From the NCBI GenBank assembly GCA_027002405.1, contig JALWZT010000233.1, positions 1 to 49,249 of the forward strand: DNA of 49,249 nucleotides, given 5' to 3'. The notes under the pieces were generated by a model. It was not told where the DNA came from, did not search any database, and saw only the letters and a list, made by a program, of their open reading frames with translations. Positions within the stretch are counted from its first letter, which is position 1, and every line of letters starts with the position of its first letter. Made by a program: the position numbers and the translations under genes. Origin of the DNA: Anaerolineae bacterium (GTDB taxonomy: Bacteria > Chloroflexota > Anaerolineae > J102). Positions 8,697 through 45,605 of the stretch are shown piece after piece.

Positions 8697-8849
8697 TGGA
8701 TTTCCTGAAAAAACCTTAACCACGGAAACACAGAGAGCACGGAGAGGGAAAAAGACAAGGTTTGGAGAGGATTTTCTCCGTGAACCCCCTTTATTTTTCT
8801 CTGTGTCCTCCGTGTCTCCGTGTTGAAATACCTTTTTGCAGTACATCCA
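8697..8849 (+). mobile_element. 153-bp MITE (TGGAT...ATCCA family) with 4-bp target duplication ACTA
   Basis: Ends TGGATTTCCTGAAAAAA / TTTTTGCAGTACATCCA; ACTA at 8693-8696 and 8850-8853; internal inverted 9-mer arrays; other copies at 12342-12494 and 21709-21859. Confidence 0.85.
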
Positions 8850-8852
8850 ACT

Positions 8853-9710
8853 ATGCCTATGGATTTACCAATCCCTACCTCATTTCCTTTCTATCAGGAA
8901 CTGATCACCGCCATTGAACTGGCCCGACAGGCGGGGGATTTGCTTCTGCGCATCCATCGTACCGGGCCGCGTCAGGTGCGGACCAAACGCACCGCGGTGG
9001 ATATGGTCACGGAAGCGGATACAGCCAGCCAGGCCCTCATTCTAGAAACCCTCATCGCCCGCTTCCCCGGACACAGCATTTTGGCCGAAGAAGAAGGGGG
9101 GGAGCGCACCGGCCAGGGGCAGGGCTTGTGGTTGGTTGATCCCCTGGACGGCACCACCAATTTCGCCAGCCGCTTCCCCGTCTTCGGGGTTTCCATCGCT
9201 CTATGGGTGGATGAAACCCCGGTATTGGGGGTGATCCAGGATGTGGTTCGGGAACGCACCTACTGGGGAGCTCGAGGGCATGGGGCCTGGCTGGGGACCC
9301 CCGCCCACCTGGCTGATCTCCCCCTGCGGGTCTCATCCACCCGGGAATTGAACCAAAGCCTTATCGCCACCGGGTTTCCCTATGCCCGGGCCACCCTGCG
9401 GGATAACAATCTGGCCGAATTCAACTATCTCATGCCCCGGGTGCGCGGGGTGCGACGGGCCGGGGCTGCTGCCTTGGACCTGGCCTGGGTGGCTGATGCC
9501 CGGCTGGATGGCTATTGGGAAGCGCATCTGTCGCCCTGGGATTGGGGCGCGGGGGTTTTGCTCATCCAGGAGGCCGAGGGCGTGGTCACCGATTATCAGG
9601 GGAATCCCTGGCGTTTGGGCCGGGATCAAATGGTCGCGGGCAATCCCTATGTGCACGAAAAGCTTTTGCAAGCAGTGCAAAAAGCCCGCCAGCAAGCCGG
9701 ATTGCCATAA
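8853..9710 (+). CDS. suhB: Inositol monophosphatase (SuhB family)
   Basis: DMVTEAD, WLVDPLDGTTNF, ATGFPY, RRAGAAALDL, PWDWGAG; start could also be 8859. Confidence 0.88.
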   Translation: MPMDLPIPTSFPFYQELITAIELARQAGDLLLRIHRTGPRQVRTKRTAVDMVTEADTASQALILETLIARFPGHSILAEEEGGERTGQGQGLWLVDPLDGTTNFASRFPVFGVSIALWVDETPVLGVIQDVVRERTYWGARGHGAWLGTPAHLADLPLRVSSTRELNQSLIATGFPYARATLRDNNLAEFNYLMPRVRGVRRAGAAALDLAWVADARLDGYWEAHLSPWDWGAGVLLIQEAEGVVTDYQGNPWRLGRDQMVAGNPYVHEKLLQAVQKARQQAGLP

Positions 9711-9714
9711 CAAT

Positions 9715-10670
9715 CGCCACGCGCGGCGGCTCGCCAATACCGAGGAAAATGGGGACGCTGATGCACGCAGATGCAACGCAGACTTCGCAGATGTTCGTCA
9801 TGCTGAGCGACCGGAGGGAGCGAAAGCCTACCCTGAGGAATCGAAGGGCATCTAGCGAGCGAAGCGAGCGATAATGTGGATTTTGCGCTTCGCTAGAACC
9901 TGTTATGAACTTATCGCCAGTTTCACGCGATTTTGTGGATGGCGGGCGTTTCAATTCGCCACGGATGACGCTGATGCGACGGATCGACACGGATTTTTGG
10001 GGAAAAAGCATGGTATCTGTTTGAAAAATCCGCGAAAATCTGCTTTATCCGCGTTATCCGCGGCCAATTCCAACCTCCGATGCGGCGATCCTGAGCTTTG
10101 AGGGAAGCAAGGTGCATAACAGCCTCTAGATTCCTCGGTCGCTTTGCTCCCTCGGAATGACGTTTCGTTGTCGCCTTTTTCGTGGCCCTATTTTTTGGCG
10201 TTGTCTGGCCGACCGAAGTGGCGTCTGCCACGCCCGCCCGCCCGGCGATGAAGTCGCCGGGCTATAAAACGGCGCCGGATGAATCCGGCTAGCCCCGCAA
10301 CTGATTACTGATGACTGATCACTGATTACTCGTGCTCGCGCCTAACTTCGGCCTAACAATCCTCAATCCTAATCCTGATCCTATTTACGGAACAGTCACC
10401 ATGAGCGATAGCTCACCACATAACGATGAAAATAGGGACGCAGATGTTCGTCATGCTGAGCGATCGAAGGGAGCGAAGCATCTAGCGAGCGAAGCGAGCG
10501 CCATGCCGTGGTTTTTGCGCTTCGCTAGATTCCTCGGTCGCTTCGCTCCCTCGGAATGACGTCGCGAGGCTCTATTTACGGAACAGATACGAAGCCCTGC
10601 GGGCTGGTCACGGGAGTGCTACTGAACACTGATGACTGATGACTGATTACTGATTACTGAATCACTGACT
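9715..10670 (+). mobile_element. Tandem cassette array (about 9715-10395 and 10396-10586) with nested MITE
   Basis: A-end variant at 9715; T-end CTATTTACGGAACAG at 10381-10395 and 10572-10586; unit 10396-10586 is near-identical to 24719-24909 and 42671-42861. Confidence 0.85.
9897..10125. mobile_element. MITE inserted at a duplicated CTAG inside a palindromic module
   Basis: CTAG at 9893-9896 and 10126-10129; ends AACCTGTTATG / CATAACAGCCT; the uninterrupted host GCTTCGCTAGATTCCTCGG is visible at 10519-10537. Confidence 0.85.
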
Positions 10671-11898: not shown

Positions 11899-12525
11899 CT
11901 GTTATGAAGATAGAGGTCTCATGCAAAGGCGCCGAGGGCGCAAAGAGAGTCATTAGTGTTCAGTGTTCAGTGTTCAGTAATCAGTGTTGGATGTCCTGAA
12001 AAAACTCATTTGGGTGCGTCCTAAATGAGTTGGCGCCAGCCTCCTATCCGAGTGAACTCGGACTCTTTTAGGCGCTTCGCGCCGACGGTCGACCTCCGTC
12101 GACCGGATGACTGGACGGCGAAGGCCGTCCATTGGCCATAGGCCTTAAGTGTCCGACTTCAGTCGGTGAGTACAGCCTCAACCGAAATAGGACGCCCCCA
12201 ACTCATTTCACCGCAGAGTGCGCTGAGAGCGCAGAGAAAATCCTGAGGTTTCGCGGAGAAAATACCTCTGAATCCAGTCTTTTAACTCTGCGTCCTCTGC
12301 GTTCTCCGCGGTGAGTAACCTTTTTGCAGTGGAACCAAGATTGGATTTCCTGAAAAAACCTTAACCACGGAGACACAGAGAGCACGGAGAAGAAAAAAGA
12401 TAGAATTTGGAGAGGATTTTCTCCGTGAACCCCTTTATTTTTTCTCTGTGTCCTCCGTGTCTCCGTGTTGAAAAACCTTTTTGCAGTAGATCCATCGTTA
12501 TGTGATGAGCCATCGCTCATGGCGA
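11899..12525 (-). mobile_element. Cassette unit (reverse) containing two TGGAT-family MITEs and a nested MITE
   Basis: Starts CTGTTATGAAGATAG, ends ...GAGCCATCGCTCATGGCGA|CTG; MITEs at 11988-12337 and 12342-12494. Confidence 0.8.
12011..12200. mobile_element. 190-bp MITE with 7-bp target duplication ACTCATT
   Basis: Terminal inverted repeats TGGGTGCGTCCTA / TAGGACGCCCCCA; ACTCATT at 12004-12010 and 12201-12207. Confidence 0.85.
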
Positions 12526-18792: not shown

Positions 18793-18827
18793 GAAAGCCG
18801 AGGCCCCGTGAGGCTAGCCGGGTTCAT

Positions 18828-18978
18828 TGAGCGATGGCTCACCACATAACGATGAAAATGGAACGCAGATTTGCGCAGATGCTTCGCAACGCAGATTGAC
18901 GCAGATGATTTTTATTTTGATTTTATCTGCGTGAATCAGCGTTTTATCAGCGTTTATCTGCGTTCTCTATTTTCGGGA
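18828..18978 (+). mobile_element. Single cassette unit with CGCAGAT palindromic cargo, overlapping the glgD-like 3' end
   Basis: A-end TGAGCGATGGCTCACCACATAACGATGAAAAT; inverted CGCAGAT/ATCTGCG arrays; T-end variant CTATTTTCGGGACGG. Confidence 0.75.
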
Positions 18979-20257
18979 CGGGCCATTGGACATTCTCTCC
19001 TCCTGGAACTTCCAGATTGGGGAAGTCCAAAAAAGCCTCCTCCGTCACCCTCACGCCCACGACCACGTTACGTCCCAGCCGGGCCCCTTCGGGGATGCGG
19101 CTCCGTTGTCCGACCAGGGTGATGCCGGTATTGAGGATATCGGGCATATTGGAATTGGGTTGGTTGTTTTCCCCCACGCCCACCTGGGCGCGCGGGCCTA
19201 TCACCACCTGTTCATCCAGAATAGCCCGGTCTACCATGGCCCCGGCCTTGATCACCGCATTGTGCATCACAATGCTATCTCGCACCACCGCGCCCTCTTC
19301 AATGATCACGCCGGGACCGATCATGGAACGTTCCACCTCTCCCCAAATCCGGGCCCCATCACTGAGCAAATTGTTCTGGGCCCGAGCCTCGGGGCTGAAC
19401 CATACGGGCGGGTATTGTTCGGACCGGGTGTGGATGGTCCAACGGCGGTCGTTGAGCTCCAGCGCGGGGATGTGGGATAGCAAAGCCATGTTCGCTTCGT
19501 AATAAGCGGGAACGGTGCCTACATTGGCCCAATACCCTTCGAATTCATAGGCATATACTCGGGCTTTTTTGATTAGATCGGAAATAACCTCTTTACCCAG
19601 ATCGTTAGCTTCCTTTTTATTTTCTGTCAGCCAGGCTCTGAGGACCTCGGCCCGGAAGACATAAATCCCCATGCTGGCCAGGGTCGCCCGTGTACGCCGG
19701 GGTTTTTCTTCAAAACGAAGGATACGGTTATCCACATCCAGAGTCACCATCCCAAAACGGGATGTCTGGTGAGGCGCAACCGGGCGCACTGCAATGGTCA
19801 CATCGGCCCGGCTACGGCGATGAAAATCCAACATGGGTTGATAATTCATTTTGTAAACGTGATCCCCCGAGAGCACCAAAACCTCATCCACCCCGTCCTC
19901 TTCCACCACATCCAGGTTCAAACGCAAGGCATCCGCGGACCCTTTCTCCCACAATCCTTCCCCTGGCCGTGTCTGGTAAGGCTGGAGAAGGCGTAGCCCC
20001 CGGGTGGATCGATCCAAATCCCAGGGTTTGCCCGAACGAATATGTTCGTTCAGCGGCCGGGGCATGTACTGGGTGAGGACCGCCACATTGTAGATGTTGG
20101 AATTCACGCAATTGGATAGGGGGAAATCGATGACGCGATACTTGCCGGCAAAAGGCACGGCCGAGGCAGGACGCCGCGCGGTGAGCACGGCCAGGCCCGG
20201 CCCGGCACCACCGGCCAAAATCATCGCCATGACGTTGGATTCTGAGCTATCGGTCAT
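18947..20257 (-). CDS. Glucose-1-phosphate adenylyltransferase-like subunit (GlgD-like)
   Basis: GlgC-like sequence ([25 protein letters not shown]), but the GxGxRL and KPxV motifs read GAGPGL and ASAV. Confidence 0.88.
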
Positions 20258-22444: not shown

Positions 22445-23095
22445 AGTGTATTCCGAAAATAGGATCAGGATTAGGATTAGGATTGAGGATTGTTAGGCCG
22501 AGGTTAGGCGCGAGCTGGAGTAATCAGTGAGCAGTCATCAGTCATCAGTGTTCAGTAGCACTCCCGTGGCCAGCCCGCAGGGCTTCGTATCTGTAGCTCG
22601 GAGTCAAAGACCTTGAAGGTCTGGGAGACGCTTCAAGGTCTGGAGCTGGCGTTGGCCCCGCGGGTGGTGGTGCGAGGGCCAGCCGCCTGCACCAGGGGAT
22701 GATTCCCCGGCCAGAAACAGCGCGCCTGGGGGGCTAGCCGGATTCATCCGGCGCTGTTTTATAGCCCGGCGACTTCATCGCCGGGCGGGCGTCAAAGACC
22801 TTGAAGGTCTGGGAGACGCTTCAAGGTCTGGAGCTGGCGTTGGCCCCGCGGGTGGTGGTGCGAGGGCCAGCCGCCTGCACCAGGGGATAATTCCCCGGCC
22901 AGAAACAGCGCGCCTGGGGGGCTAGCCGGATTCATCCGGCGCCGTTTTATAGCCCGGCGACTTCATCGCCGGGCGGGCGGGCGTGGCAGACGCCACTTCA
23001 GTCGGCTAGACAACGCCAAAAAATAGGGCCACGAAAAAGGCGACGACGAACATCTGCGGAAATCTGCGAAGCATCCGCGCAAATCTGCGTTCCCT
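22445..23095 (-). repeat. Composite repeat cluster with an internal 188-bp tandem duplication
   Basis: T-end variant plus AGGATT hexamers and TCAGT heptamers; 22603-22790 is repeated at 22791-22978. Confidence 0.88.
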
Positions 23096-23253: not shown

Positions 23254-24699
23254 ATGACGCCCATTCGCTTTGGCACCGACGGCTGGCGAGCCGTCATCAG
23301 TGATGAGTTCACTTTTCAGAATGTACGGTTGGTCAGTCAAGCTATCGCGGACCTGTTCCGTCGGGATCATCCCGACCAGGACTTGCTTTTCGTCGTGGGA
23401 TACGACACCCGGTTTCTTTCAGATCGCTATGCCCAAACGGTGGCCGAGGTCCTCGCGGGCAATGGCATTCGCGTGCTGTTGACCCAATCCTTCGCGGCCA
23501 CGCCCGCGGTTTCTTATGCCATCGTGCATCATCGCGCCACCGCGGGGGTCATGATCACGGCCAGTCATAACCCGCCCCGATACAACGGTTTGAAGTTGAA
23601 GGCCGGGTATGGGGGCTCGGCCTCGCCCGAACTGAGCCGCCAGGTGGAAGCCCGGTTGGTGGCCAACGAACAGGCCCGGCGCCCGGTTCAACAGCTTTCC
23701 CTGGAAGAAGGCCTTCGCCGCGGGCTTATCGCACGGTTTGATCCTTACCCTCCCTATGCCCGCCATGTGGCCCAATTGGTCGACCTGGAAGCCATCGCCC
23801 GTTCGGGTATGAGATTGGCCATCGATGCCATGTACGGCGCGGGGATAGGGTATACCAATCGCATCCTGCAGGAGGCGGGCGTCGAGCCCATCCTGCTCCA
23901 TCATGAACTCAATCCTGGATTCGGCGGCCTGCACCCAGAACCCATCGCCCGGCATTTGCAGGATCTAAGCGAGACCATGCGGCGTACCGACGCCATGCTG
24001 GGCCTGGCCACCGATGGCGACGCGGACCGCATCGGCGCCATGGACGCGGCCGGTGTCTTCCTGACACCTCATGCTATCCTCACCCTGGCCCTCGATTACC
24101 TTCTCCAAAAAGGCCTGCGGGGTAAAGTGGTAAAAACCGTGAGCACCACCCAGATGCTCAATCGTCTGGCCCAAGAACATCGGTTGGAGGTCATCGAAAC
24201 CCCGGTGGGATTCAATTACATCTCCGAGCTGATGTTGCAAGGGGATGTGCTCATCGGCGGAGAGGAATCGGGCGGGATGTCCATCCAGGGGCATATCCCC
24301 GAAGGGGATGGCGTGCTCATGGGGTTGCTTTTGGCGGAGTTGGTGGCCAAACAAGGTGGCGACGCCCGCGCCCTTATGAACCGCATCATGGACCGCATCG
24401 GGCATTTCGCTTATGCCAGACACGATTACGCGACCAAGCCCTTTGCCAAAGCCGCGTTGGTGAAAGCCCTGACCGATGATGCGCCTTCCCATCTCAATGG
24501 CGCGACGGTGGTAAGATTAGAGACCCGTGACGGCGTCAAATATGTGTTGGATGATGACAGTTGGTTGCTCATCCGCCCTTCGGGCACGGAACCGGTGCTT
24601 CGGGTGTATGCCGAAGCACGGGACCAGGACGCGGTGCAGCATTTGCTGGAAGAAGGCGCCCGCCTGGCCCAGACCGCGTTGGCCCGAGGGATCGCCTAA
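23254..24699 (+). CDS. Phosphoglucomutase/phosphomannomutase family protein
   Basis: FGTDGWR, TASHNP, DGDADR, GGEESGG, RPSGTEP; RBS GGAGG. Confidence 0.96.
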   Translation: MTPIRFGTDGWRAVISDEFTFQNVRLVSQAIADLFRRDHPDQDLLFVVGYDTRFLSDRYAQTVAEVLAGNGIRVLLTQSFAATPAVSYAIVHHRATAGVMITASHNPPRYNGLKLKAGYGGSASPELSRQVEARLVANEQARRPVQQLSLEEGLRRGLIARFDPYPPYARHVAQLVDLEAIARSGMRLAIDAMYGAGIGYTNRILQEAGVEPILLHHELNPGFGGLHPEPIARHLQDLSETMRRTDAMLGLATDGDADRIGAMDAAGVFLTPHAILTLALDYLLQKGLRGKVVKTVSTTQMLNRLAQEHRLEVIETPVGFNYISELMLQGDVLIGGEESGGMSIQGHIPEGDGVLMGLLLAELVAKQGGDARALMNRIMDRIGHFAYARHDYATKPFAKAALVKALTDDAPSHLNGATVVRLETRDGVKYVLDDDSWLLIRPSGTEPVLRVYAEARDQDAVQHLLEEGARLAQTALARGIA

Positions 24700-24703
24700 G
24701 ATA

Positions 24704-25102
24704 CTATTTACGGAACAGTCACCATGAGCAATCGCTCACCACATAACGACGAAAATGGGGACGCAGATGTTCGTCATGCTGAGCGACCGAAGGGAGCGAA
24801 GCATCTAGCGAGCGAAGCGAGCGCCATGCCGTGTTTTTTGCGCTTCGCTAGATTCCTCGGTCGCTTCGCTCCCTCGGAATGACGTCGCGAGGCTCTATTT
24901 TCGGAACAGGCACCACGAGCGATGGCTCGCCGATACGGACGAAAATCGCTTGCGCCGACCAACGTCGACCAAAGTAGACCAACATGGACGATGGAGCTTC
25001 TTGGTCTATGTTCGTCCTATGGTCTATGTTGGTCTGATCGCTCATCAAGGTCTATGCGACCGACCTTGGACTTCGGACATTGGACCCTTTTCTTCGGAAC
25101 AG
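24704..25102 (+). mobile_element. Tandem cassette array (24719-24909 and 24910-25102)
   Basis: Three GGAACAG junctions ending at 24718, 24909 and 25102; each unit starts with an A-end; the two units carry different palindromic cargo. Confidence 0.85.
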
Positions 25103-28387: not shown

Positions 28388-29220
28388 GTAAATAGGATCA
28401 GGATTAGGATTGAGGATTGTTAGGCCGAGGTTAGGCGCGAGCAGGAGTAATCAGTGATCAGCGAGTGTTCAGTGTTCAGTAGCACTCCCGTGGCCAGCCC
28501 GCAGGGCTTCGCATTCGTAGCACGGCGGTTTAGCTCCGAGCAGAAGAAACAGCGCTGCATGCCTAGCCGGAATTATCCGGCGCCGTTCTGGTGCCCAGCG
28601 ACTTCATGAGGCTGTTGGCAAACCTCAAGCGGGTTGCCGGGCAATCCGGCAAAGGCGGTGATCCGGCCGTTCGGCCCCCACCCCTGCCCCTCCCCCGCAA
28701 GCGGGGGAGGGGTGATCGCCCGGAACGGAGGGGCTGCGTAAGACTCATCCCCCTGCAGAAACGGTCGGGAGGGGGTATCCTCAACGTACATCAGTAAGCC
28801 AACAGGTTCACTTCATCGCCGGGCGGGCGTGGTGGCCCCAGACCTCGGAGGTCTGCGCAGACCCTCCGAGATCTCATGCTCACCTGCCACTTGCGCCCCA
28901 TTTTTCGTCGTTATGCGGTGAGCTCTCGCTCATGGTGACTGTTCCGTAAATAGAGCCTCGCGACGTCATTCCGAGGGAGCGAAGCGACCGAGGAATCTAG
29001 CGAAGCGCAAAAACCACGGCATAGCGCTCGCTTCGTTCGCTAGATGCCCTTCGATTCCTCAGGGCAGGCTTTCGCTCCCTCCGGTCGCTCAGCATGACGA
29101 ACATCTGCGCAAATCAGCGCTGCGAAGCATCGGCGCAATCTGCGTTCTCTCTACCTGCCACCTGCCACCTGCCACTTGCGACTTGCCACTTGCAAACCTG
29201 CAAACTGCGTTCCTATTTTC
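28388..29220 (-). mobile_element. Reverse tandem cassette array (junction at 28939) with nested MITE
   Basis: ...GCTCATGGTGA|CTGTTCCGTAAATAG junction; modules match 10396-10586 and 14340-14560. Confidence 0.85.
28608..28809. mobile_element. 202-bp MITE with 7-bp target duplication ACTTCAT
   Basis: Ends GAGGCTGTTGGC / GCCAACAGGTTC; ACTTCAT at 28601-28607 and 28810-28816; interrupts the palindrome GCCCGGCGACTTCATCGCCGGGC. Confidence 0.85.
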
Positions 29221-34186: not shown

Positions 34187-35368
34187 ATGAAACCCGCAAC
34201 CATCCTCTATCCTCACAGCTCGGATGAGCTTTACGGTTCGGATGTGGTGCTGCTGAACTTGGTCCGACGGTTGGACCGCGCGCGTTTCCGGCCCATGGTG
34301 CTTTTGCCCACGGATATCCCCTATCAGGGGGCGCTGAGCCAGGCTCTGGATGAGGCAGGGATCGCGCATCGGGCATTGGCCATGCCCGTGTTGCGCCGGC
34401 GTTATTTTTCCGCGCGAGGCATGCCTCGATTCATCCGCGATCTATGGCGTGGCCGGCAGGGAATCCCCGCGCTGGCGCGGCAGGAGGGGGTGGCGCTGAT
34501 CCACAGCAATACCAGCGCGGTATGGGGCGGAGCCCTGGCCGCGTCGCGATTGGGGATCCCCCACATCTGGCATGTGCACGAACTGGTGACAGACCCCCTT
34601 TTGGTGCGTAAGCTTATCGCCTGGATGGTGAATCGATACAGCGATCGGGTCGTGGCCATCAGTCGGGCTGTGGCCGAGCACTTGTTGAAGGACGCGCCCG
34701 GCCTGGAAGGACGGATCACCGTGATCTATGATGCGGTGGATACCGAACGGTTTGCCCCCACGGTTTCGGGCCAAGCTTTGCGGCAGGCCTGGGGCGTGGG
34801 GCCAGAAGAGGTGCTGGTGGGGGTGGTGGGCCGCATCTCGGCCTGGAAGGGACAGGATTTCTTCTTGCGGGCCTTTGCCCAGGCCGTGCGGGTGGAGCCC
34901 CGCTTGCGGGCGGTGATCGTAGGGGATGTGCCCCCGGGCGAAGACTGGCGGCGGGATGCGCTCCAGCAACTGGCCCGGGAATTGGGTGTGGCCCAACGGG
35001 TGTTGTGGCCCGGGTATCATCCGGATGCCCCGCGGGTGATGGCTGCGCTGGATATCCTTGCCCTGCCTTCCATCAAGCCCGAACCTTTTGGCATGGTGGT
35101 CATCGAGGCCATGGCCACGGGCAAACCGGTGATCGCCACCGATCATGGAGGTCCTATGGAATCGGTGGTTCATGGCCAGACCGGGTTGCTGGTTTCCCCC
35201 ACAGCCCCGGAGGAGATGGCGCAGGCCCTGATCCGCCTGGCCCGAGACCCCCTGTTGCGTCGCACCTGGGGCGCGCAAGGTCGGGCCCGGGCCCAGACCC
35301 TCTTCAGCTTCGACGCCCATGTGAACGCGTTTCAGGCGTTGTATGCGTCTGCTATGAAAATAGAATGA
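34187..35368 (+). CDS. Glycosyltransferase family 4
   Basis: WHVHE, VGRISAWKG, EPFGMVVIEAMA. Confidence 0.93.
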   Translation: MKPATILYPHSSDELYGSDVVLLNLVRRLDRARFRPMVLLPTDIPYQGALSQALDEAGIAHRALAMPVLRRRYFSARGMPRFIRDLWRGRQGIPALARQEGVALIHSNTSAVWGGALAASRLGIPHIWHVHELVTDPLLVRKLIAWMVNRYSDRVVAISRAVAEHLLKDAPGLEGRITVIYDAVDTERFAPTVSGQALRQAWGVGPEEVLVGVVGRISAWKGQDFFLRAFAQAVRVEPRLRAVIVGDVPPGEDWRRDALQQLARELGVAQRVLWPGYHPDAPRVMAALDILALPSIKPEPFGMVVIEAMATGKPVIATDHGGPMESVVHGQTGLLVSPTAPEEMAQALIRLARDPLLRRTWGAQGRARAQTLFSFDAHVNAFQALYASAMKIE

Positions 35369-35864
35369 TCGCTGGTTACTGAGGAATCGCCAGGCCGACG
35401 TTGGGCGAGTCGGCAAAGGTTCGTATTGCGTATTCCGTATTCCGTCCAGTCGTTACGCAATACGCAATACGGAATACGAGTCACGCCGCCCTGGCCGCGA
35501 GGCATTTTCGTCGGTATCGGCGCGGGGTGGCCCGCCGTCGGACTGCTTTGTAAATAGGATTCGGATCAGGATTAGGATTGAGGATTGTCAGGCCGAGGTT
35601 AGGCGCGAGCAGGAGTAATCAGTGATCAGTTATCAGTAATCAGTGTTCAGTAGAACCTTGCAACGTCATTCCGAGGGAGCGAAGCGACCGAGGAATCTAG
35701 CGAAGCGCAAAAAACCACGGCATGGCGCTCGCTTCGCTTGCTAGATGCTTCGCTCCCTTCGGTCGCTCAGCATGACGAATATCTGCGAAAATCTGCGTTG
35801 CGAAGCATCGGCGCAAATCTGCGTTCCCTTTTCCTCGGTATCGGCGAATCGTCGTTCGTGGCGC
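35349..35864 (-). mobile_element. Reverse tandem cassette array (35349-35542 and 35543-35864)
   Basis: CTGCTATGAAAATAG and CTGCTTTGTAAATAG starts; reverse A-ends; CTG at 35865; first unit is a near-identical inverted copy of 37267-37460. Confidence 0.85.
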
Positions 35865-35974: not shown

Positions 35975-36937
35975 ATGAATCCTACGACCCTTCAACATCC
36001 TTCTTCCGAACAACGGGTTGATCGCACCTGGAAACATTATCTGGGGCTGGTTGCCCGGGGGTTTGCCATGGGCTCGGCCGATGTGGTGCCCGGTGTTTCG
36101 GGCGGCACCATGGCGTTTATCCTGGGCATTTACGCCGAGCTGATCTTCAGCATCCGGGCCATTGGCCGCCGAGAATTTTGGGATGCCCTGCTGCATCTTC
36201 GCTTGAAGGAGGCCCTTTGGGCCATCAATCTCCCCTTCTTGCTGGCCCTGGGCTCGGGCATTATTCTGGCGTTTTTGTCCTTAGCTAAGGGCCTGGAATG
36301 GATGCTGGAAAATAAGCCCGTCTACATTTGGAGTTTCTTTTTTGGGTTGGTCCTGGCTTCTATCATCACGGTAGCCCGACGAATCAAACAATGGACCGTC
36401 ATCCTCCTGACGGCTCTGATCCTGGCCGCGGTGGGTGCGTATCTTTTGGTAGGGGCTGTGCCAGCTCAGACGCCCGATACTTTCCTCTACGTGTTTTTTA
36501 GCGGCGCCCTGGCCAGCACGGCCATGATCCTCCCCGGGATCTCGGGGGCCTTCATCCTGGTGCTTTTGGGCAAGTACCAGTTTGCCCTGAGCGCTGTCAA
36601 TCAGCGGGACGTGCTCAGCCTGTTGGTGTTGGCCGCGGGCGCGGGCGTGGGCCTGGTCACCTTTGCCCAGGTGCTGGGATGGCTTTTCCGCAAACATCAC
36701 GATCTGACCGTGGCCATTCTGACCGGCTTCATGTTAGGAAGTTTGCGCAAGCTGTGGCCATGGAAGGTGGTCGTAGAGACCATGACCGATAGCCATGGCC
36801 GGGAAATCCCTGTGGTTTTGCACAATGTGCTCCCTCCGGGCCTGACTGCGGAGGTGGGCATCGCCATCATCCTGGCTGCCATCGGTTTCGCCGCGGTCTT
36901 GCTGCTAGACCACATGGCGGTCACCATTGGTGACTGA
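35975..36937 (+). CDS. DUF368 family membrane protein
   Basis: GFAMGSADVVPGVSGGTMAFILGIY, AMILPGISGAFILVLLG, GSLRKLWPW. Confidence 0.92.
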   Translation: MNPTTLQHPSSEQRVDRTWKHYLGLVARGFAMGSADVVPGVSGGTMAFILGIYAELIFSIRAIGRREFWDALLHLRLKEALWAINLPFLLALGSGIILAFLSLAKGLEWMLENKPVYIWSFFFGLVLASIITVARRIKQWTVILLTALILAAVGAYLLVGAVPAQTPDTFLYVFFSGALASTAMILPGISGAFILVLLGKYQFALSAVNQRDVLSLLVLAAGAGVGLVTFAQVLGWLFRKHHDLTVAILTGFMLGSLRKLWPWKVVVETMTDSHGREIPVVLHNVLPPGLTAEVGIAIILAAIGFAAVLLLDHMAVTIGD

Positions 36938-36941
36938 ACTG

Positions 36942-37460
36942 TCGCCATGAGCGAGAGCTCACCCCATAACGACGAAAATGGGAACGCAGATTTTCGCAGA
37001 TGCGGCGCAGATTTCCACTGATTACTGATAACTGATCACTGATTACTCTATCTTCAAAGCAGTCGCCACGAACGGCAGTTCGCCAATACCGAAGAAAACA
37101 TCTCGCGGCCAAGTTGGCGCGGGAAGCCGAGCCCGGGATGCGTAATGCGTGATGCGTAAGGCTCTCACGTTTTACGTTTCACGCATCACGCCCGTTGTCG
37201 CCTCGCCCAACGTGGGCCTGGCGATCCGCAATCCTAATCCTGATCCGAATCCTATTTACAAAGCAGTCCAACGGCGGACCAGCCCGCGCCGATACCGACG
37301 AAAATGCCTCGCGGCCAGGGCGGCGTGACTCGTATTCCGTATTGCGTATTGCGTAACGACTGGACGGAATACGGAATACGCAATACGAACCTTTGCCGCC
37401 TCGCCCAACGTCGGCCTGGCGACTCCTCAGCAACCAGCGATCATTCTATTTTCATAGCAG
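36942..37460 (+). mobile_element. Three-unit tandem cassette array (36942-37062, 37063-37266, 37267-37460)
   Basis: Each unit starts with an A-end variant and ends CTATCTTCAAAGCAG, CTATTTACAAAGCAG or CTATTTTCATAGCAG; each carries different heptamer cargo. Confidence 0.87.
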
Positions 37461-37470
37461 GAGGCGCCCC

Positions 37471-38235
37471 ATGCATGCATCCACCAAAACAGTACTGGTG
37501 ACCGGAGGTGCCAGTGGCATTGGGCTGGCTATTGCCACCCGATTTGCCCGGGAAGGTTATTCCCTGGTCATTGGTGACATCAATCAACGTGATGGCGAAC
37601 GGGTCGCCCGGGACCTGCACGCGATCTTTGTGCATGGGGACTTGGCCCAACGAGCGGCATGCCGCCGCTTGGTCGATGTGGCTGTCGAAACTTATGGTCA
37701 TGTGGATATTTTGGTTAACGTAGCTGGTTTTCAGCATATTGATCCCATTGATGTGTTTCCCGAAGATGTTTGGGACAAGATGCTGGCCGTGATGCTCACC
37801 GCGCCTTTTCTCCTGACTCGTTATGTCTGGCCAGGGATGCGGGCTCGCGGTTGGGGACGCATTGTCAATATCGCGTCCATTCATGGCCTGGTGGCTTCGC
37901 CCTACAAGAGCGGGTATATTTCCGCCAAACATGGCCTCATTGGCCTCACACGCACCGCCGCGTTGGAAGGGGGGCCTTTTGGAATCACGGTAAACGCCAT
38001 TGCCCCAGCCTATGTGCGCACACCTTTGGTGGAACGCCAGATTGCCGATCAAGCGCGCACCCGGGGGCTTTCTGAAGAAGAAGTCATCGAAAAAGTGATG
38101 CTGGAACCCGCAGCCATCAAGCGTTTGATCGAACCGGAAGAGGTCGCGGCCATGGTGTGGTATCTCTGCTCGGAAGAGGCCCGCAATATCACCGGGTCTG
38201 TTTTCACGTTGGATGCCGGCTGGACCGCGCGATAA
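37471..38235 (+). CDS. 3-hydroxybutyrate dehydrogenase (SDR)
   Basis: [40 protein letters not shown]. Confidence 0.9.
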
Positions 38236-39762: not shown

Positions 39763-39893
39763 GGGGATAACCTATGACAGGGGAGCGTGTGGGGGGTGGT
39801 GTTTTTGCCAAATGACATGCTTTTGGGTACGATTAACCAGTTTGAACGTTGTCATTATCGTTATCTCTCGCCAAAAGGACAACTTCCGGGATC

Positions 39894-42380
39894 ATGTTTT
39901 TCAAAAGCTATATTCCTGAACAAGAACGCGTCGAGGCCAATCGTAAGCTGCCCAAACTGTTGGTAGAAGGCCTGCTGTTGGGTGGCACGGGCCTGGGCGT
40001 CTTTGCCTTGATTTTTGAGATCGCGGCGGATGCCTTCAGTGTTGCGGCCTATCAGACCCTGTTGGCTATCCATGGTGCAGCGGGGTATCATATGATCGCG
40101 ATCTGGGCGTTCGTGGTGCTTTCGGTGCTGCTCTATTTTGGCATCGTGCCCGCGTACAAAGCGGGGAGCTATTTGCGGCCCAATGCCGGGGGCAGTGGTC
40201 CCATGGTGGAGGCCATCGGCCCTGGCTGGCTACGATGGCTTTCCTGGGTGGGGACCAGCCTCTTCTTTGTGGACGCGGTGCTCACCATCATTATCAGCTC
40301 CATCTCGGCCGCGGATGTGACCATGTTGGTCATGCCCGAGCTGGCACCGTATCGGATTCTGTTGGCGGAGTTTTTCGCCTTTTTCATTATGGTGGTGCTG
40401 GTGCTGATGGGGCCCAAGCGGGCCGTTCCCCTTTTCCTGATCGGTGGCGGGGCCTTTACCCTTTTCACTTTGGGTGCCCTCACCCTGGTGGGGGTCGAAG
40501 CGTTGATTCATCCCGAATGGGCCTTTCTTACCGATGGCATTATCCGGCGTCTTCAGGCCGCCAATGTGGTGGAGCATGTGGTGCGCGCCCAGCAGGATAT
40601 GGTCGCGCTGGGAACGGTCATCATCTTGCAACTCTTTTTCCGGTCCATGTCCAGCGCCATGCTGGGTTTTTCGGGTTACGAGGTGATCCCGGCCAGCGGT
40701 AAACATGCGGCCCGCCCCAAATGGAAAGTCATCAGTGTGGCTCTGACGCTGGCCGCCCTTTTCCTCATTGGTACGGGGGTGGCCCAACTTTACGCGGCCA
40801 ATCGCTGGCAGATCCCTGCCACCGAAGGTTACAGTACCCTTCTCATCGAATATGAGATTGTGGCGACCCAGGCCATGAGCCCAGGGGTGGACCCCACACA
40901 GATTCAGGTCACCAAGGCCGATGAACTGGCGGCCGAGGCCATCTATGCCGAAGAGGCCCTGGCCAACCCCTTTGAAGGGATTTTGGGAGGGAGAATCCGT
41001 CCGCCCCAGCCTCCGCCCCCGGATCACGAACAATTCATCAAAGATGTTTCCTATGACATCGCGGTCTCCCGGGCCATCACCCAGACCCTGGCCGGGAGCG
41101 TGGGCGCCACGTTCCTTTTTGTGGCGGGGACTTTGATGGCCATCATCCTGCTCTTGGCCCAGGGGGGCGGTTATGTAGGCGGCGCGGCCGTGGCTGCCAA
41201 TGCCGCGCGGCTGGGCCGTCTGCCGGGCTTTTTGCTGGATGACCGCATCGGCATCGCGATCATCTGGGGGGTCTCTGCCGTCCTCATTCCCATCATCAAG
41301 CAAGTGGTCGTGGTAGAAAGCTACTATGCCTTCGGCTTTGTCAGCGCGTTTATCATCACCAGTACCGCGGTATTTTTTGTGCGGAATGATGTGCTGGAAA
41401 AGAAAGGCATCCGGCCCGGTTCGGCCGAGGCCCGCACCCTGCGCTTTGCCGGGGCCCGAGGGATGTTTGCCAGCTACCTGATGGGCGCGGTCTTGGTGGT
41501 GGAAAAGACCCACGCCCTCTATGCAGTGGCACTCGCGGGCGCGGCGATCACCGTGTTCCAAATCCTGGTGGCCAATGGAGGATTTAAGAAACAGGATGTG
41601 CGCAAACTCATCGATGTGATTGTTTCTCAGACGGATCGCTTCAAACCCCATTCAGGCATCGAACGGGCTATCGAACAGGCACGCCAGCGAGGCATTGCCG
41701 ACGCCCTGGAAGACCTCCATCATGAAGGGCGTCTGGTCAAATTCAATGTGGACTTTTGGCGGGTGCAAAGGCTGGTGGCTTATCTCTATAACCTGGATCC
41801 GAAGGTTTTCGATAAAGGGGAACATGAGGACGAACGGATTGAGGAACCCAATCTCATCCTGGCCGAAGCGTATGAACGAGCTTATGCCCAAAAGGAACAG
41901 ATTCTAAAACGGATCGAACGATACTCCCACTTTGGGATTTTCATGTTCATCCATAATTACCATGTCAACTGGATCGCTCCCGAAACGGGCCGCTCCGCGG
42001 AAACGGTCCAGCAGGCCATGATTCACATCCTCTTCCCCCTGACCCCGCCCGAAGAAATCTGGGCCGAATATCAGGCTTTTAAGCCGGTTCGCCAGCCCGA
42101 GGAGATATGGCAATTCAGCCGACAACGCTATTTATGGGCAAAGGATCAATGGCCCAACCTGTCGGACCGCATTACCACCATCTGGACCTTGCAGGATTTT
42201 GGTCTTTTGCCTAAGGATATTTCTTTTGATATGGTGGTTACCGTGGCCAATGGGAAAGAATTTCGGCGGATTCATGTGCATGCCACCGCTCCTAGAGGAG
42301 AACAAAGGACCATGGTGGAAAGGGATGAGGCCTCGCCCTCGGGAGAAGAAGATCTCCCATTCTCAGAGGAGTCGTCATGA
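39894..42380 (+). CDS. APC-superfamily-like multi-pass membrane protein with a large soluble C-terminal domain
   Basis: About 12 hydrophobic segments; SLFFVDAVLTIIISSIS, GFSGYEVI and YAFGFV resemble amino-acid permease motifs; about 270-aa hydrophilic tail. Confidence 0.7.
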   Translation: MFFKSYIPEQERVEANRKLPKLLVEGLLLGGTGLGVFALIFEIAADAFSVAAYQTLLAIHGAAGYHMIAIWAFVVLSVLLYFGIVPAYKAGSYLRPNAGGSGPMVEAIGPGWLRWLSWVGTSLFFVDAVLTIIISSISAADVTMLVMPELAPYRILLAEFFAFFIMVVLVLMGPKRAVPLFLIGGGAFTLFTLGALTLVGVEALIHPEWAFLTDGIIRRLQAANVVEHVVRAQQDMVALGTVIILQLFFRSMSSAMLGFSGYEVIPASGKHAARPKWKVISVALTLAALFLIGTGVAQLYAANRWQIPATEGYSTLLIEYEIVATQAMSPGVDPTQIQVTKADELAAEAIYAEEALANPFEGILGGRIRPPQPPPPDHEQFIKDVSYDIAVSRAITQTLAGSVGATFLFVAGTLMAIILLLAQGGGYVGGAAVAANAARLGRLPGFLLDDRIGIAIIWGVSAVLIPIIKQVVVVESYYAFGFVSAFIITSTAVFFVRNDVLEKKGIRPGSAEARTLRFAGARGMFASYLMGAVLVVEKTHALYAVALAGAAITVFQILVANGGFKKQDVRKLIDVIVSQTDRFKPHSGIERAIEQARQRGIADALEDLHHEGRLVKFNVDFWRVQRLVAYLYNLDPKVFDKGEHEDERIEEPNLILAEAYERAYAQKEQILKRIERYSHFGIFMFIHNYHVNWIAPETGRSAETVQQAMIHILFPLTPPEEIWAEYQAFKPVRQPEEIWQFSRQRYLWAKDQWPNLSDRITTIWTLQDFGLLPKDISFDMVVTVANGKEFRRIHVHATAPRGEQRTMVERDEASPSGEEDLPFSEESS

Positions 42381-42861
42381 GCGATGGCTCACCGCATAAC
42401 GATGAAAATAGGACGCAGGTTGCAGGTTTGCAAGTGGCAAGTGGCTGGTGGTCACGGTGTGCGTCTCAGACATTTGGCGTGGTTTAGCCGAGCGAAGTGG
42501 CGTCCACCACGCCCGCCCGGCGATGAAGTCGCCGGGCTATAAAACGGCGCCGGATGAATCCGGCTAGCCCCGCAACTGATTACTGATGACTGATCACTGA
42601 TGACTCGTGCTCGCGCCTGACCTCGGCCTAACAATCCTCAATCCTAATCCTGATCCTATTTACGGAACAGTCACCATGAGCGAGAGCTCACCACATAACG
42701 ATGAAAATAGGGACGCAGATGTTCGTCATGCTGAGCGACCGAAGGGAGCGAAGCATCTAGCGAGCGAAGCGAGCGCCATGCCGTGGTTTTTGCGCTTCGC
42801 TAGATTCCTCGGTCGCTTCGCTCCCTCGGAATGACGTCGCGAGGCTCTATTTACGGAACAG
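42372..42861 (+). mobile_element. Tandem cassette array (42372-42670 and 42671-42861)
   Basis: A-end overlaps the upstream stop codon; CTATTTACGGAACAG ends at 42670 and 42861. Confidence 0.87.
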
Positions 42862-44167: not shown

Positions 44168-45457
44168 TCAGTGTTCAGTTATCAGTGACACCGCGAACAT
44201 CTGCTCTCGCTCGGGTCCCACAGACACGTACGCGATGGGGGTGCCGGCCAGTTCGCTGATGCGTTGCAAGTAAGCCTGCGCGGCCGCAGGGAGGTCCTCC
44301 CACCTACGGACATGGCGGGTATCGGTCATCCAGCCGGGCATGGTTTCGTAGATGGGGTCTACCTGATAAAGCGCGGGGGTATCGGGCATACGGTCCGAAA
44401 TCACCTGGCCCGAAGGCAAACGGTACCCCACACAGATTTTCAATTCGGGGAAGGTATCCAGCACATCCAGCTTGGTCACCGCCAGGCCGGTCATACCGTT
44501 GAGCCAGGCCGCGTAACGGATGGCCACACCATCGAACCAACCGCAACGCCGGGGCCGGCCTGTGGTGGCGCCATATTCCCCGCCCTGTTCTCGTAATCGC
44601 TCCCCCAGCTCGTCATGAAGTTCGGTGGGAAAGGGCCCGGCCCCCACCGCGGTGCTGTAGGCTTTCACCACGCCGATCACCCGAGTGACCGAGCCCGCGG
44701 GCAGGCCCGCGCCCACAGGCGCGTAGGCCGCGGTAGGGTTGCTGCTGGTCACAAAAGGATAGATCCCCCAATCCAGGTCCCGCATGACCCCCAACTGTCC
44801 TTCCAGCAGGATCGACGCCCCCTGGGCCAGGGCCTGGCGCAGCATGGGCGTGGTATCGATGATGCGGTCGGCCAAAGCCTCGCGAAAAGTCATAAGCTGC
44901 TCGTACAAGACCTGGCCATCCACCGGCTCGCCCCCAAAAAGCTGCAACTTGCGATTCACCGTGCGCAATGCATGGTCCAGCCGCGCCTCCAACCAGTCGG
45001 GATAAAGCAGGTCGCCCATACGCAATCCCGAGCGCGCGGCCTTATCGGCATAAGCCGGGCCAATGCCCCGTTTGGTGGTCCCGATGCTATCCCGGCCTCG
45101 GACTTGTTCTTCCAACGCGTCCAGCCGGCGATGATAGGGCATCACCATCTGCGCCCGGGCACTGATCCACAGGCGGTCCAAACTGACGCCCGCGGCCTGC
45201 AATTGGGCCATCTCGTCCAGCAAAGCCGCGGGGTTCACCACGCAGCCTGTGCCAATGATGTTGTGGGTGGATGGATTGAAGATGCCGCTGGGAATAAGGT
45301 GCAAGGCATGCTTGCCGAATCGATTGATCACGGTATGACCGGCGTTATCCCCGCCCTGAAAACGGATGACCACATCCGCTTTTTGAGCCAGATAATCGAT
45401 CACACGGCCTTTTCCTTCATCGCCCCATTGGGCGCCGACAATGGCGGTAACGGACAT
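44168..45457 (-). CDS. purA: Adenylosuccinate synthetase
   Basis: [49 protein letters not shown]. Confidence 0.97.
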
Positions 45458-45484
45458 AAGGGGAAACCTCGGGAATGGTATAAT

Positions 45485-45605
45485 GTGCCGGAAATAGGAT
45501 TAGGATTAGGATTGAGGATTGTCAGGCCCGCGGTGAGCAGTAAGCAGTGTTCAGTGTTCAGTGTTCAGTGTTCAGTAATGTGTGGTGAGCCATCGCTCAT
45601 GGCGA
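45485..45605 (-). mobile_element. Short cassette unit (reverse) with hexamer and heptamer cargo
   Basis: CCGGAAATAGG, AGGATT hexamers, CAGTGTT heptamers, then GTGAGCCATCGCTCATGGCGA|CTG. Confidence 0.75.

Follow-up and report, generated by a model that had tools for sequence, protein, structure and literature searches.

Head-to-tail arrays of polar, non-coding units with target-like 3' ends in genomes of Anaerolineae

IS91, ISCR and Helitron elements have two different ends, use a short, one-sided target that is not duplicated, and carry a hairpin near one end, the terminating 3' end; tandem copies tend to form when termination is skipped. Integron cassettes share one orientation at a single platform and are joined through a short core, with an attC site that is split between cassette ends. 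The BOX repeats of Streptococcus pneumoniae are modular and non-coding, with fixed, partly complementary A and C ends and a middle module that varies in number; their mobilizing enzyme is unknown, and they are not known to form exact head-to-tail junctions by self-targeting. Here, we describe short non-coding units that lie head to tail in a 49,249-nucleotide (nt) contig of an Anaerolineae bacterium (JALWZT010000233.1 of assembly GCA_027002405.1; this whole stretch is called the window), for example at positions 36942-37460, and that may be mobilized in trans. The relevant described elements include the palindrome-associated transposable elements (PATEs), which derive from IS200/IS605 insertion sequences and were described in Haloquadratum (PMC3119063). 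In the portions of that paper available to us, PATEs have no terminal inverted repeats and no target duplication, need a 4-6 bp oligonucleotide on their 5' side, and possess a conserved 3' terminal oligonucleotide as well as near-terminal palindromes (PMC3119063). Repetitive extragenic palindromic (REP) sequences, bacterial interspersed mosaic elements (BIMEs) and paired REPs (REPINs) are arranged in alternating or inverted orientation in the available portions of their descriptions (PMC2817692, PMC3116915, PMC3337134, PMC3733652).

Anatomy, polarity and abundance of the units

Three head-to-tail units on the plus strand, 121, 204 and 194 bp long, make up the 519 bases at 36942-37460; a VCA0040-like gene stops before this stretch, and a short-chain dehydrogenase gene starts after it. 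Each unit starts with TC right after the cut site, followed by a hairpin with a 5-bp stem and a 4-nt loop and then by a box. The left end (A-end) is accordingly a 5-bp hairpin plus the AYANCGANGAAAA box, whose general form is (A/G)NATAMCGANGAAAAY and which reads ATAACGACGAAAA or ATACCGANGAAAA in these three units. The right end (T-end) has the consensus CTATTTNCNNARCAG, and the three units finish with CTATNTTCAAAGCAG, CTATTTACAAAGCAG or CTATTTTCATAGCAG. Unit 1 (36942-37062, 121 bp, cargo family 2) has CTG as its 5' flank, 4 nt past the stop codon of the upstream gene. Its hairpin lies at 36948-36961 (TGAGC/GCTCA, loop GAGA) and its box at 36966-36978, and its cargo of CGCAGAT-type and (ACTGATN)n 7-nt repeats is followed by the T-end CTATCTTCAAAGCAG at 37048-37062. 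Unit 2 (37063-37266, 204 bp) belongs to family 0, the largest cargo family, with 368 copies of about 200 bp; the next families have 102 and 35 copies. It comprises a hairpin at 37069-37082 (CGAAC/GTTCG), a box at 37086-37098, a long imperfect palindrome of ~130 nt whose 7-nt arms are of the form CGTNNNN, a tail of (AATCCT)n, and a T-end at 37252-37266. Unit 3 (37267-37460, 194 bp) also belongs to family 0, with palindrome variant c. Its A-end has a different hairpin sequence, TCCAACGGCGGACCAGCCCGCGCC, with the box at 37292-37304; its heptamer palindrome spans about 37326-37393, and its T-end (37446-37460) finishes in a CAG that is separated by 10 nt from the ATG of the downstream gene.

The units are abundant in the assembly from which the window was taken (G000; 4.32 Mb, 363 contigs, 58.5% G+C, estimated completeness 98.6%); the sequencing runs that hold the window are labeled hydrothermal vent metagenomes. 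The A-end motif, searched as CRCCAYGAGCGNNNGCTCRCC with at most two mismatches, matches 15 times in the window, as compared with 0.04 expected from 100 shuffles, and 545 times in the assembly. T-ends number 781 when exact and 1026 when at most one mismatch is allowed. A-to-T lengths peak at 180-219 bp (250 of 474). When the A-end is defined by its box, 862 complete units are counted, the smallest of 93-101 bp, and these form 619 arrays, of which 423 hold one unit, 156 two, 34 three, 5 four and 1 five. Together they occupy 224,364 bases, or 5.2% of the assembly.

The order of the two ends is strictly polar. We considered the 413 A-ends for which the nearest contig end is no closer than 720 nt. 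Within 700 nt downstream, a T-end follows on the same strand in 286 cases and in inverted orientation in 3. A same-strand T-end lies upstream of 177 A-ends, and its gap to the motif is exactly 1 nt in 167 of them, giving junctions of the form ...CAG/TC-hairpin, in which the slash marks the cut site. An earlier note on this DNA had proposed both the polarity and the exact junction, and its T-end/A-end junctions at 10395, 24718, 24909, 37062, 37266 and 42670 on the plus strand and at 28939 and 35543 on the minus strand are all present, with 1 nt between the T-end and the A-end motif in each.

Conservation outside the arrays is confined to the 5' side. In array 5' flanks without an upstream CTATTT (n = 224-228), positions -3 to -1 are C, A and G at frequencies of.74,.82 and.89, and positions -8 to -4 show a weaker C-R-R-A-R, such that the whole flank resembles the last eight bases of the T-end. 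Beyond the final CAG of an array, the composition of the 3' flank is that of the background (n = 496). CAG is present in 16 of 44 5' flanks that fall in coding sequence, which also include several TAG/G and GAG/G cases. The earlier note described the outer flanks as often CAG or AG; a CAG preference of the 5' flank is supported, even in coding sequence, and the first unit at 36942-37460 has CTG there instead. The units leave no target-site duplication; the right CAG is the element's and the left CAG is the target's. Where the left triplet is not CAG (84 arrays), the last triplet of the unit is identical to it in 1 case and is CAG in 66. The five bases before CAG in the left flank match those of the unit's own T-end at 390 of 960 positions, with 356 +/- 12 expected by chance. 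The lack of duplication and the one-sided CAG fit elements that insert beside a short recognized sequence.

The two ends of a unit, TCRCC...hairpin and ...CTATTTNCNNARCAG, are not complementary, and terminal inverted repeats are absent, in agreement with the earlier note. A-ends fall into two types, A1 ACATAACGAYGAAAA and A2 GATACSGANGAAAA; at A1-type junctions, the CCTATTT of the T-end can pair with the AAATAGG of the next A-end. The A-end hairpin is conserved as a structure, with compensatory changes. Five main stems occur at a fixed place upstream of the box (TGAGC 157, GCGGG 100, CGAAC 75, CGAGC 69 and CGCGC 33), and a perfect stem of at least 5 bp accompanies 538 of 1080 box hits versus 101 of 1080 after shuffling. 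In an alignment of 55 A-ends from the window and other genomes (54 distinct copies), 91% of the cells are paired and three of the five pairs change on both sides (22 cells), a level of covariation that was reached by 0 of 500 shuffles.

Adjacent units carry different cargo, as had been noticed before. It is made up mainly of palindromes and of 7-nt (ACTGATN, CGCAGAT, CGTNNNN) and 6-nt (AATCCT) tandem repeats, as at 37017-37047, 37230-37254 and 37331-37387. In the main family, the long palindrome has three variants that differ in their 7-nt arms (CGTGATG, CGTCAAG and CGTATTC types), each of which is still self-complementary. The arms hold a 7-nt period across these three compensatory variants.

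The distribution of the motif among genomes is patchy. Within the genus of the window, it is found in 5 of 11 other genomes, with most matches in G000 (225 versus at most 31), and in a sample of the class it is found in 20 of 401 genomes. Genomes with many copies belong to four taxonomic families (G000 233, G287 35, G174 25 and G022 15). On other contigs from metagenomes and metagenome-assembled genomes (MAGs), the same order is observed: a T-end-like CAG precedes TC-hairpin-box, and a T-end follows 100-290 nt downstream. In two same-genus genomes, the orthologous intergenic spacer holds unique sequence and no unit. The patchy distribution, combined with near-identical end motifs, suggests horizontal spread.

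Proposed mobilization in trans and competing explanations

Our preferred reading, which we hold with moderate confidence, is that the units are mobilized in trans, insert 3' of CAG and target themselves. They would be copies of a non-autonomous, strictly polar mobile element present in several Anaerolineae lineages. Insertion would occur immediately 3' of a short target, at best CRRARCAG and minimally NAG, and would leave no target-site duplication. The 3' end of the element would perfectly copy the target, so that each resident unit would offer a new site; because the tail recreates the target, head-to-tail arrays with the junction ...CAG/TC-hairpin would grow. Under this reading, the copies would have arisen by transposition, by means of a trans-acting enzyme that is encoded elsewhere and acts on single-stranded DNA. 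Given such mobilization, an HUH-type enzyme is likely, the closest anatomy being that of IS200/IS605 (Y1 HUH) or IS91 (rolling-circle HUH). The proposal in the earlier note that these are mobile cassettes is reasonable, with mobility and enzyme both inferred; it withstood the checks that the note had set for it on polarity, on CAG boundaries and on catalogued RNA families. If correct, a self-recreated target would be a simple rule for building ordered, one-directional arrays of non-coding cassettes without an integron platform.

Several aspects of genomic behavior bear on this reading. Across 243 junction pairs, the downstream position is occupied by the most abundant family in 170 and the upstream position in 109, an excess that fits new units inserting behind resident T-ends, as the earlier note envisaged. 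The units are intergenic, and their orientation to adjoining genes is random (122 same/same versus 118 anti/anti). An opposite-strand open reading frame (ORF) ends inside the T-end in 82 arrays, the reverse complement of the T-end carrying TAA and TAG, and where the upstream gene is co-oriented, the A-end begins within 20 nt of its stop in 92 of 281 arrays. Because host ORFs often end inside the elements, insertions appear to have replaced native gene ends. The stop codons of such ORFs come from the TGA of the A-end (CATGAGC) or from the TAA/TAG of the T-end reverse complement, e.g., at 42372-42380 and 35349-35368, and the units therefore rewrite gene 3' ends by providing stop codons. Units lie within 300 nt of 77 of 726 contig ends, and they probably affect the quality of assembly and annotation of vent Anaerolineae genomes. 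The two-unit combination of the 37063-37460 type is found ~30 times at 87-95% identity, and composites may therefore also move or duplicate as a whole.

Other observations weigh against this reading. No clean empty site was found among same-genus orthologous loci, which are only ~76% identical (73-79% in genes), so that intergenic DNA is unalignable and no empty site can be compared; neither insertion nor excision was observed directly. The 212 family-0 copies have a median identity of only 0.87 to their consensus, and much of the expansion is therefore not recent. No autonomous copy emerged within the 95 loci covered: long A-to-T intervals in G000 hold no recurring ORF, and the long units with a recombinase or transposase that the earlier note suggested looking for did not turn up, in that no long unit with coding capacity was repeated. 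In low-copy genomes and metagenome contigs, lone A-ends have host genes as neighbors, encoding PMT_2/PA14/NHL, GEVED and pRiA4b-ORF3-like proteins, and one ORF without a family. The only HUH genes found in G000 are two tandem Y1_Tnp genes of 145 aa on contig C199 that resemble REP-associated tyrosine transposases (RAYTs). The repeats on either side of them belong to another multi-hairpin family, R, and only one A-to-T unit lies near them, beginning at the final R hairpin downstream of the second of these genes. The presence of Y1_Tnp across the genus does not track the motif, and 0 of 9 Y1_Tnp loci taken from five further genomes in which the A-end pattern matches, all of them fragmented MAGs, contain an A-box. 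TnpB and IS110 (PF01548) domains were not found in G000. No conserved hairpin or palindrome lies within ~35 nt of the T-end, which is preceded by 6- and 7-nt tandem repeats; the units thus lack a right-end palindrome, whereas IS200/IS605 elements and PATEs are palindromic near both ends, according to the available portions of PMC3119063. Unit orientation is not correlated with contig GC skew (Spearman rho -0.18, p 0.15), a weak proxy that also fails to track gene strand. Finally, the T-end/A-end junction is more tightly coupled than the two ends within a unit, as described below.

Some comparisons were informative neither way. Within the genome, 350 joined-flank pairs were considered as empty sites, and those examined proved to be T-end/A-end junctions of neighboring units, which are uninformative. 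For four of the 10 listed sequencing runs, the data are contigs that break at arrays, which speak neither for nor against single-unit polymorphism or circle junctions. The IS91 Y2 domain (PF04986) was not found, and control genomes were equally without a match, rendering the result uninformative. The earlier note had left room for a catalogued Rfam family; Rfam gave no match at threshold in the whole window, and within 36800-37600 only mir-2574 was reported, at 27 bits against a cut-off of 90. A plasmid collection yielded no match and viral contigs yielded 0; the statement that the ends match no catalogued insertion sequence is based on the Rfam, plasmid and viral comparisons only. Among the literature matches listed for Anaerolineae repeats, none was relevant.

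The strongest competing explanation derives from the coupling between an A-end and the sequence upstream of it. T-ends can be sorted into a GG-type, CGGAACAG, and an AW-type, CAAAGCAG/CATAGCAG. Within units, A1 is combined with GG in 130 and with AW in 35 cases, and A2 is combined with GG in 82 and with AW in 461. Across junctions (upstream T-end, downstream A-end), the corresponding counts are 41, 0, 12 and 187, and flanks that are not T-ends lean toward the same A1/A2 pairing. Either the left end sets the sequence behind which it lands, or the joined T-end/A-end site is the functional unit. In the latter case, the units would be circular cassettes that undergo conservative site-specific recombination between their joined T-end and A-end (~53 nt, crossover at CAG/TC) and T-end-like sequences. 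The enzyme might act on folded single strands as in integrons, or be a tyrosine or serine recombinase, or be of the IS110 type with a guide RNA. We retain this possibility as a serious rival mainly because of the coupling, but consider it unlikely. It would account for junctions that are coupled at 41:0 and 187:12, as compared with 130:35 and 461:82 within units, for arrays that begin with half-site A and finish with half-site T, and for the absence of target duplication. The stem CCTATTT/AAATAGG at A1 junctions encloses the cut site and hairpin (z about -2), but it is missing in the commoner A2 type. Recombinase genes are available, in that G000 has 11 Phage_integrase-domain and 4 Resolvase-domain matches; however, 10 tyrosine/serine recombinase loci that were examined, six integrase loci among them, have no A-end or A-box, and the IS110 domain is among those not found. 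The T-end pattern at up to two mismatches matches two recombinase loci (L048 twice and L055 once); among the six integrase loci, two T-end-like matches fall in a single locus. The arrays are spread over 619 dispersed places rather than one platform, the unit boundaries have none of the attC boxes RYYYAAC...GTTRRRY, and GG or non-CAG targets are tolerated, which is a poor fit to recombinases that depend on core identity.

The other side of the same alternative is that the left end specifies the target. In such an undescribed system, which we regard as rather unlikely, an unknown recombinase or nuclease would recognize the hairpin and box, perhaps via DNA-DNA or RNA-DNA pairing, and each A-end type would determine the 7-8-nt sequence behind which it lands, with A1 directing insertion behind GGAACAG and A2 behind AAAGCAG or ATAGCAG, and with the palindromic cargo being exchangeable. 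The link between A-end type and upstream sequence does suggest that target choice is encoded in the element. If true, this would be a programmable, self-extending cassette array unlike integrons, IS200/IS605 and IS110, and if the enzyme were found, it would provide a compact system for sequence-specific DNA insertion from a poorly studied phylum.

It is quite unlikely, in our judgment, that the host maintains the units as repeats similar to REP/BIME or BOX, serving for example as terminators, mRNA stabilizers or protein-binding sites and spread mainly by duplication, unequal crossing-over and gene conversion rather than by transposition of their own, perhaps aided by the resident RAYT-like genes. 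Their intergenic, hairpin-rich nature and their proximity to gene ends would suit such a role, yet they also enter coding 3' ends and replace stop codons, and they show no orientation bias to genes, although a transcript-level role predicts one. The modular make-up recalls BIME and BOX, whereas the inverted pairs of REPINs and BIMEs are not seen (3 of 413). The repeated recovery of one two-unit combination, ~30 times at 87-95% identity, and the fairly diverged copies (median 0.87 to consensus) are compatible with duplication by the host, and RAYT-like genes are present, with one A-to-T unit beginning at a hairpin that flanks them. Recombination, however, does not yield boundaries that are this sharp and one-sided and whose 5' flank resembles the target in unique DNA. 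The motif is, moreover, patchy across families of the class, and in 6 of the genus's 11 other genomes it was not found.

A very unlikely explanation is that the units are structured small RNA genes or were copied through an RNA intermediate by a reverse transcriptase. The conserved hairpin with its compensatory changes and the long stem-loops, which include some G-T pairs when the unit strand is folded, are features that an RNA might have, but no Rfam family reached threshold, the only weak match being mir-2574 at 27 bits against 90. The surplus of T-ends over A-ends (1026 versus 545) could reflect 5' truncation; the A-end deficit, however, arises largely from hairpin variants outside the motif, as the box-based count of 862 complete units indicates, and a poly-A or other 3' priming signature is absent. 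The single reverse transcriptase in G000 belongs to a group II intron that is merely inserted in the cargo of a unit. As an observation in its own right, this intron lies at about 203-2050 of contig C19, has the 5' sequence GTGCG, a 388-aa reverse transcriptase/maturase, an HNH region and domains V-VI, and interrupts the 7-nt-repeat cargo of a minus-strand unit. [quoted passage not shown]

Further units, neighboring genes and other repeats

The genes on either side of 36942-37460 are ordinary host genes on the plus strand: the VCA0040-like gene at 35975-36937, which is undecaprenyl phosphate translocase-like, and the short-chain dehydrogenase gene at 37471-38235. On the far side of the VCA0040-like gene, a two-unit array occupies 35349-35864 on the minus strand (35864 to 35543, 322 bp; 35542 to 35349, 194 bp) and is antisense to both adjoining genes. 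A plus-strand array of two units (683 bp and 191 bp) at 9713-10586 begins 2-4 nt past the stop of the gene at 8820-9710. At 24704-24945, also on the plus strand, a T-end directly 3' of the gene at 23254-24699 is followed by a 191-bp unit (24719-24909) and a lone A-end (24910-24945). The two-unit plus-strand array at 42372-42861 (about 299 bp and 191 bp) has GAG as its 5' flank. Its first A-end lies within the 3' end of the gene at 39849-42380, after ...GAGGAG, and the last two codons and the TGA stop of that gene come from the A-end at 42372.

Three further units stand outside these arrays. The long minus-strand unit at 11899-12525 (A-end 12504-12524, T-end 11899-11913) contains a copy of the unrelated R repeat near 12.0-12.1 kb. 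A single short unit on the minus strand at 45483-45605 (A-end 45584-45604, degenerate T-end 45483-45497) lies just upstream of the start of the gene at 44168-45457, and a single 160-bp unit with degenerate ends occupies 18822-18981 on the plus strand. The earlier count of six units of 191-194 bp in the window was one too high; the unit caller gives five. At 22600-22975, a 188-bp tandem duplication whose copies are 98% identical adjoins a degenerate minus-strand T-end (22448-22462). Elsewhere in the assembly, units of 552-595 bp (e.g., on contig C58) carry another small element in the loop of a REP-like double hairpin. ATGAAGT flanks this small element on both sides, and it may be a duplicating MITE.

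The R family is a chain of small hairpins (C199, positions 860-2500), of which an 18-nt probe detects 36 copies and a 24-nt probe about 100. Together with the RAYT-like genes, it looks like a REP/RAYT-type system of its own. In the same-genus genome G001, a RAYT-like gene with its own repeats is located on contig C25 downstream of the orthologue of the gene at 35975-36937, in the place of A-to-T units.

Arrays of the units were also considered as CRISPR arrays, and this idea was rejected: CRISPR spacers are unique and about 30-40 nt long, whereas the "spacers" here would be 60-650 nt long and are themselves repeated hundreds of times, and real CRISPR repeats are unrelated. G000 does contain two genuine CRISPR arrays, at positions 1-1870 of contig C152 and about 9800-10400 of contig C353, with 37- and 36-nt repeats. 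These repeats are unrelated to the A-end, and a CRISPR-repeat origin of the A-end was likewise discarded. One inter-repeat stretch of the C353 array carries a fragment of the family-0 palindrome.

Comparison with known systems

Set beside the described systems, the units share individual features with several of them. IS110 elements, which use a bridge RNA, have a DEDD transposase and ends on either side of a small common core. A short core is present at both ends of the units; PF01548 has no match in G000, an assembly of 98.6% estimated completeness split into 363 contigs, and no RNA family was matched. BOX repeats differ in that their sequences are unrelated to the units. With integron cassettes, the units have in common the same orientation, joins through a short core, a split site, imperfect palindromes with a variable center and the lack of duplication. 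They differ from integron cassettes in having no attC boundary boxes, no single platform and no genes, and no integrase adjoins the arrays at the loci examined. GTTG...CAAC does occur inside family-0 palindromes, but in the opposite order to the attC boxes and at an internal position.

IS91-type rolling-circle elements have a Y2 transposase and separate ori and ter ends, with a target tetranucleotide next to ori. The resemblance to IS91, ISCR and Helitron elements consists in the asymmetry of the ends, the one-sided target, the absence of duplication, a hairpin near one end and tandem copies, whereas the hairpin of the units is at the 5' end, beside the target. With the REP/BIME/REPIN and RAYT systems, as far as the cited sources extend, the units share hundreds of intergenic hairpin repeats, a mosaic make-up and a RAYT-like Y1 HUH gene in the genome. 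Their arrangement is different, being strictly head to tail (3 inverted versus 286 direct), in contrast to the orientations given in the available portions of those sources. In addition, the foot of the hairpin has no GTAG or CGTC tag, and the RAYT-like genes here are flanked by the R family rather than by the units.

The closest known elements are the PATEs. Judged against the portions of PMC3119063 available to us, the units agree with PATEs in being too short to code, in lacking terminal inverted repeats and target duplication, in integrating beside a specific, short oligonucleotide that lies 5' of the element, and in possessing both a near-terminal palindrome and a 3' terminal oligonucleotide that is conserved. 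Both are also present in many copies, have heterogeneous cores and are often invaded by other small repeats. The differences concern the ends and the parent. The conserved palindrome of the units is at the 5' end only, and 6 nt separate it from the cut; in PATEs, the longer of the two distances is that at the 5' end. The 3' end of the units copies the target and so gives rise to arrays, a behavior for which the available portions of PMC3119063 contain no description. No IS200/IS605 parent with the ends of the units was found in G000 or at the Y1_Tnp loci of five other genomes. The suggestion in the earlier note that this is an undescribed system is therefore too strong: the anatomy is close to that of PATEs as far as that source goes, although one of their defining features, the right-end palindrome, is missing. 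If the chemistry is that of ordinary IS200/IS605 elements, the units would still be useful as a marker in these MAGs, and genes there would have to be called with care. On the basis of their anatomy, and within what the available portions of PMC3119063 describe, the units are best viewed as PATE-like elements that are probably mobilized by an HUH enzyme.

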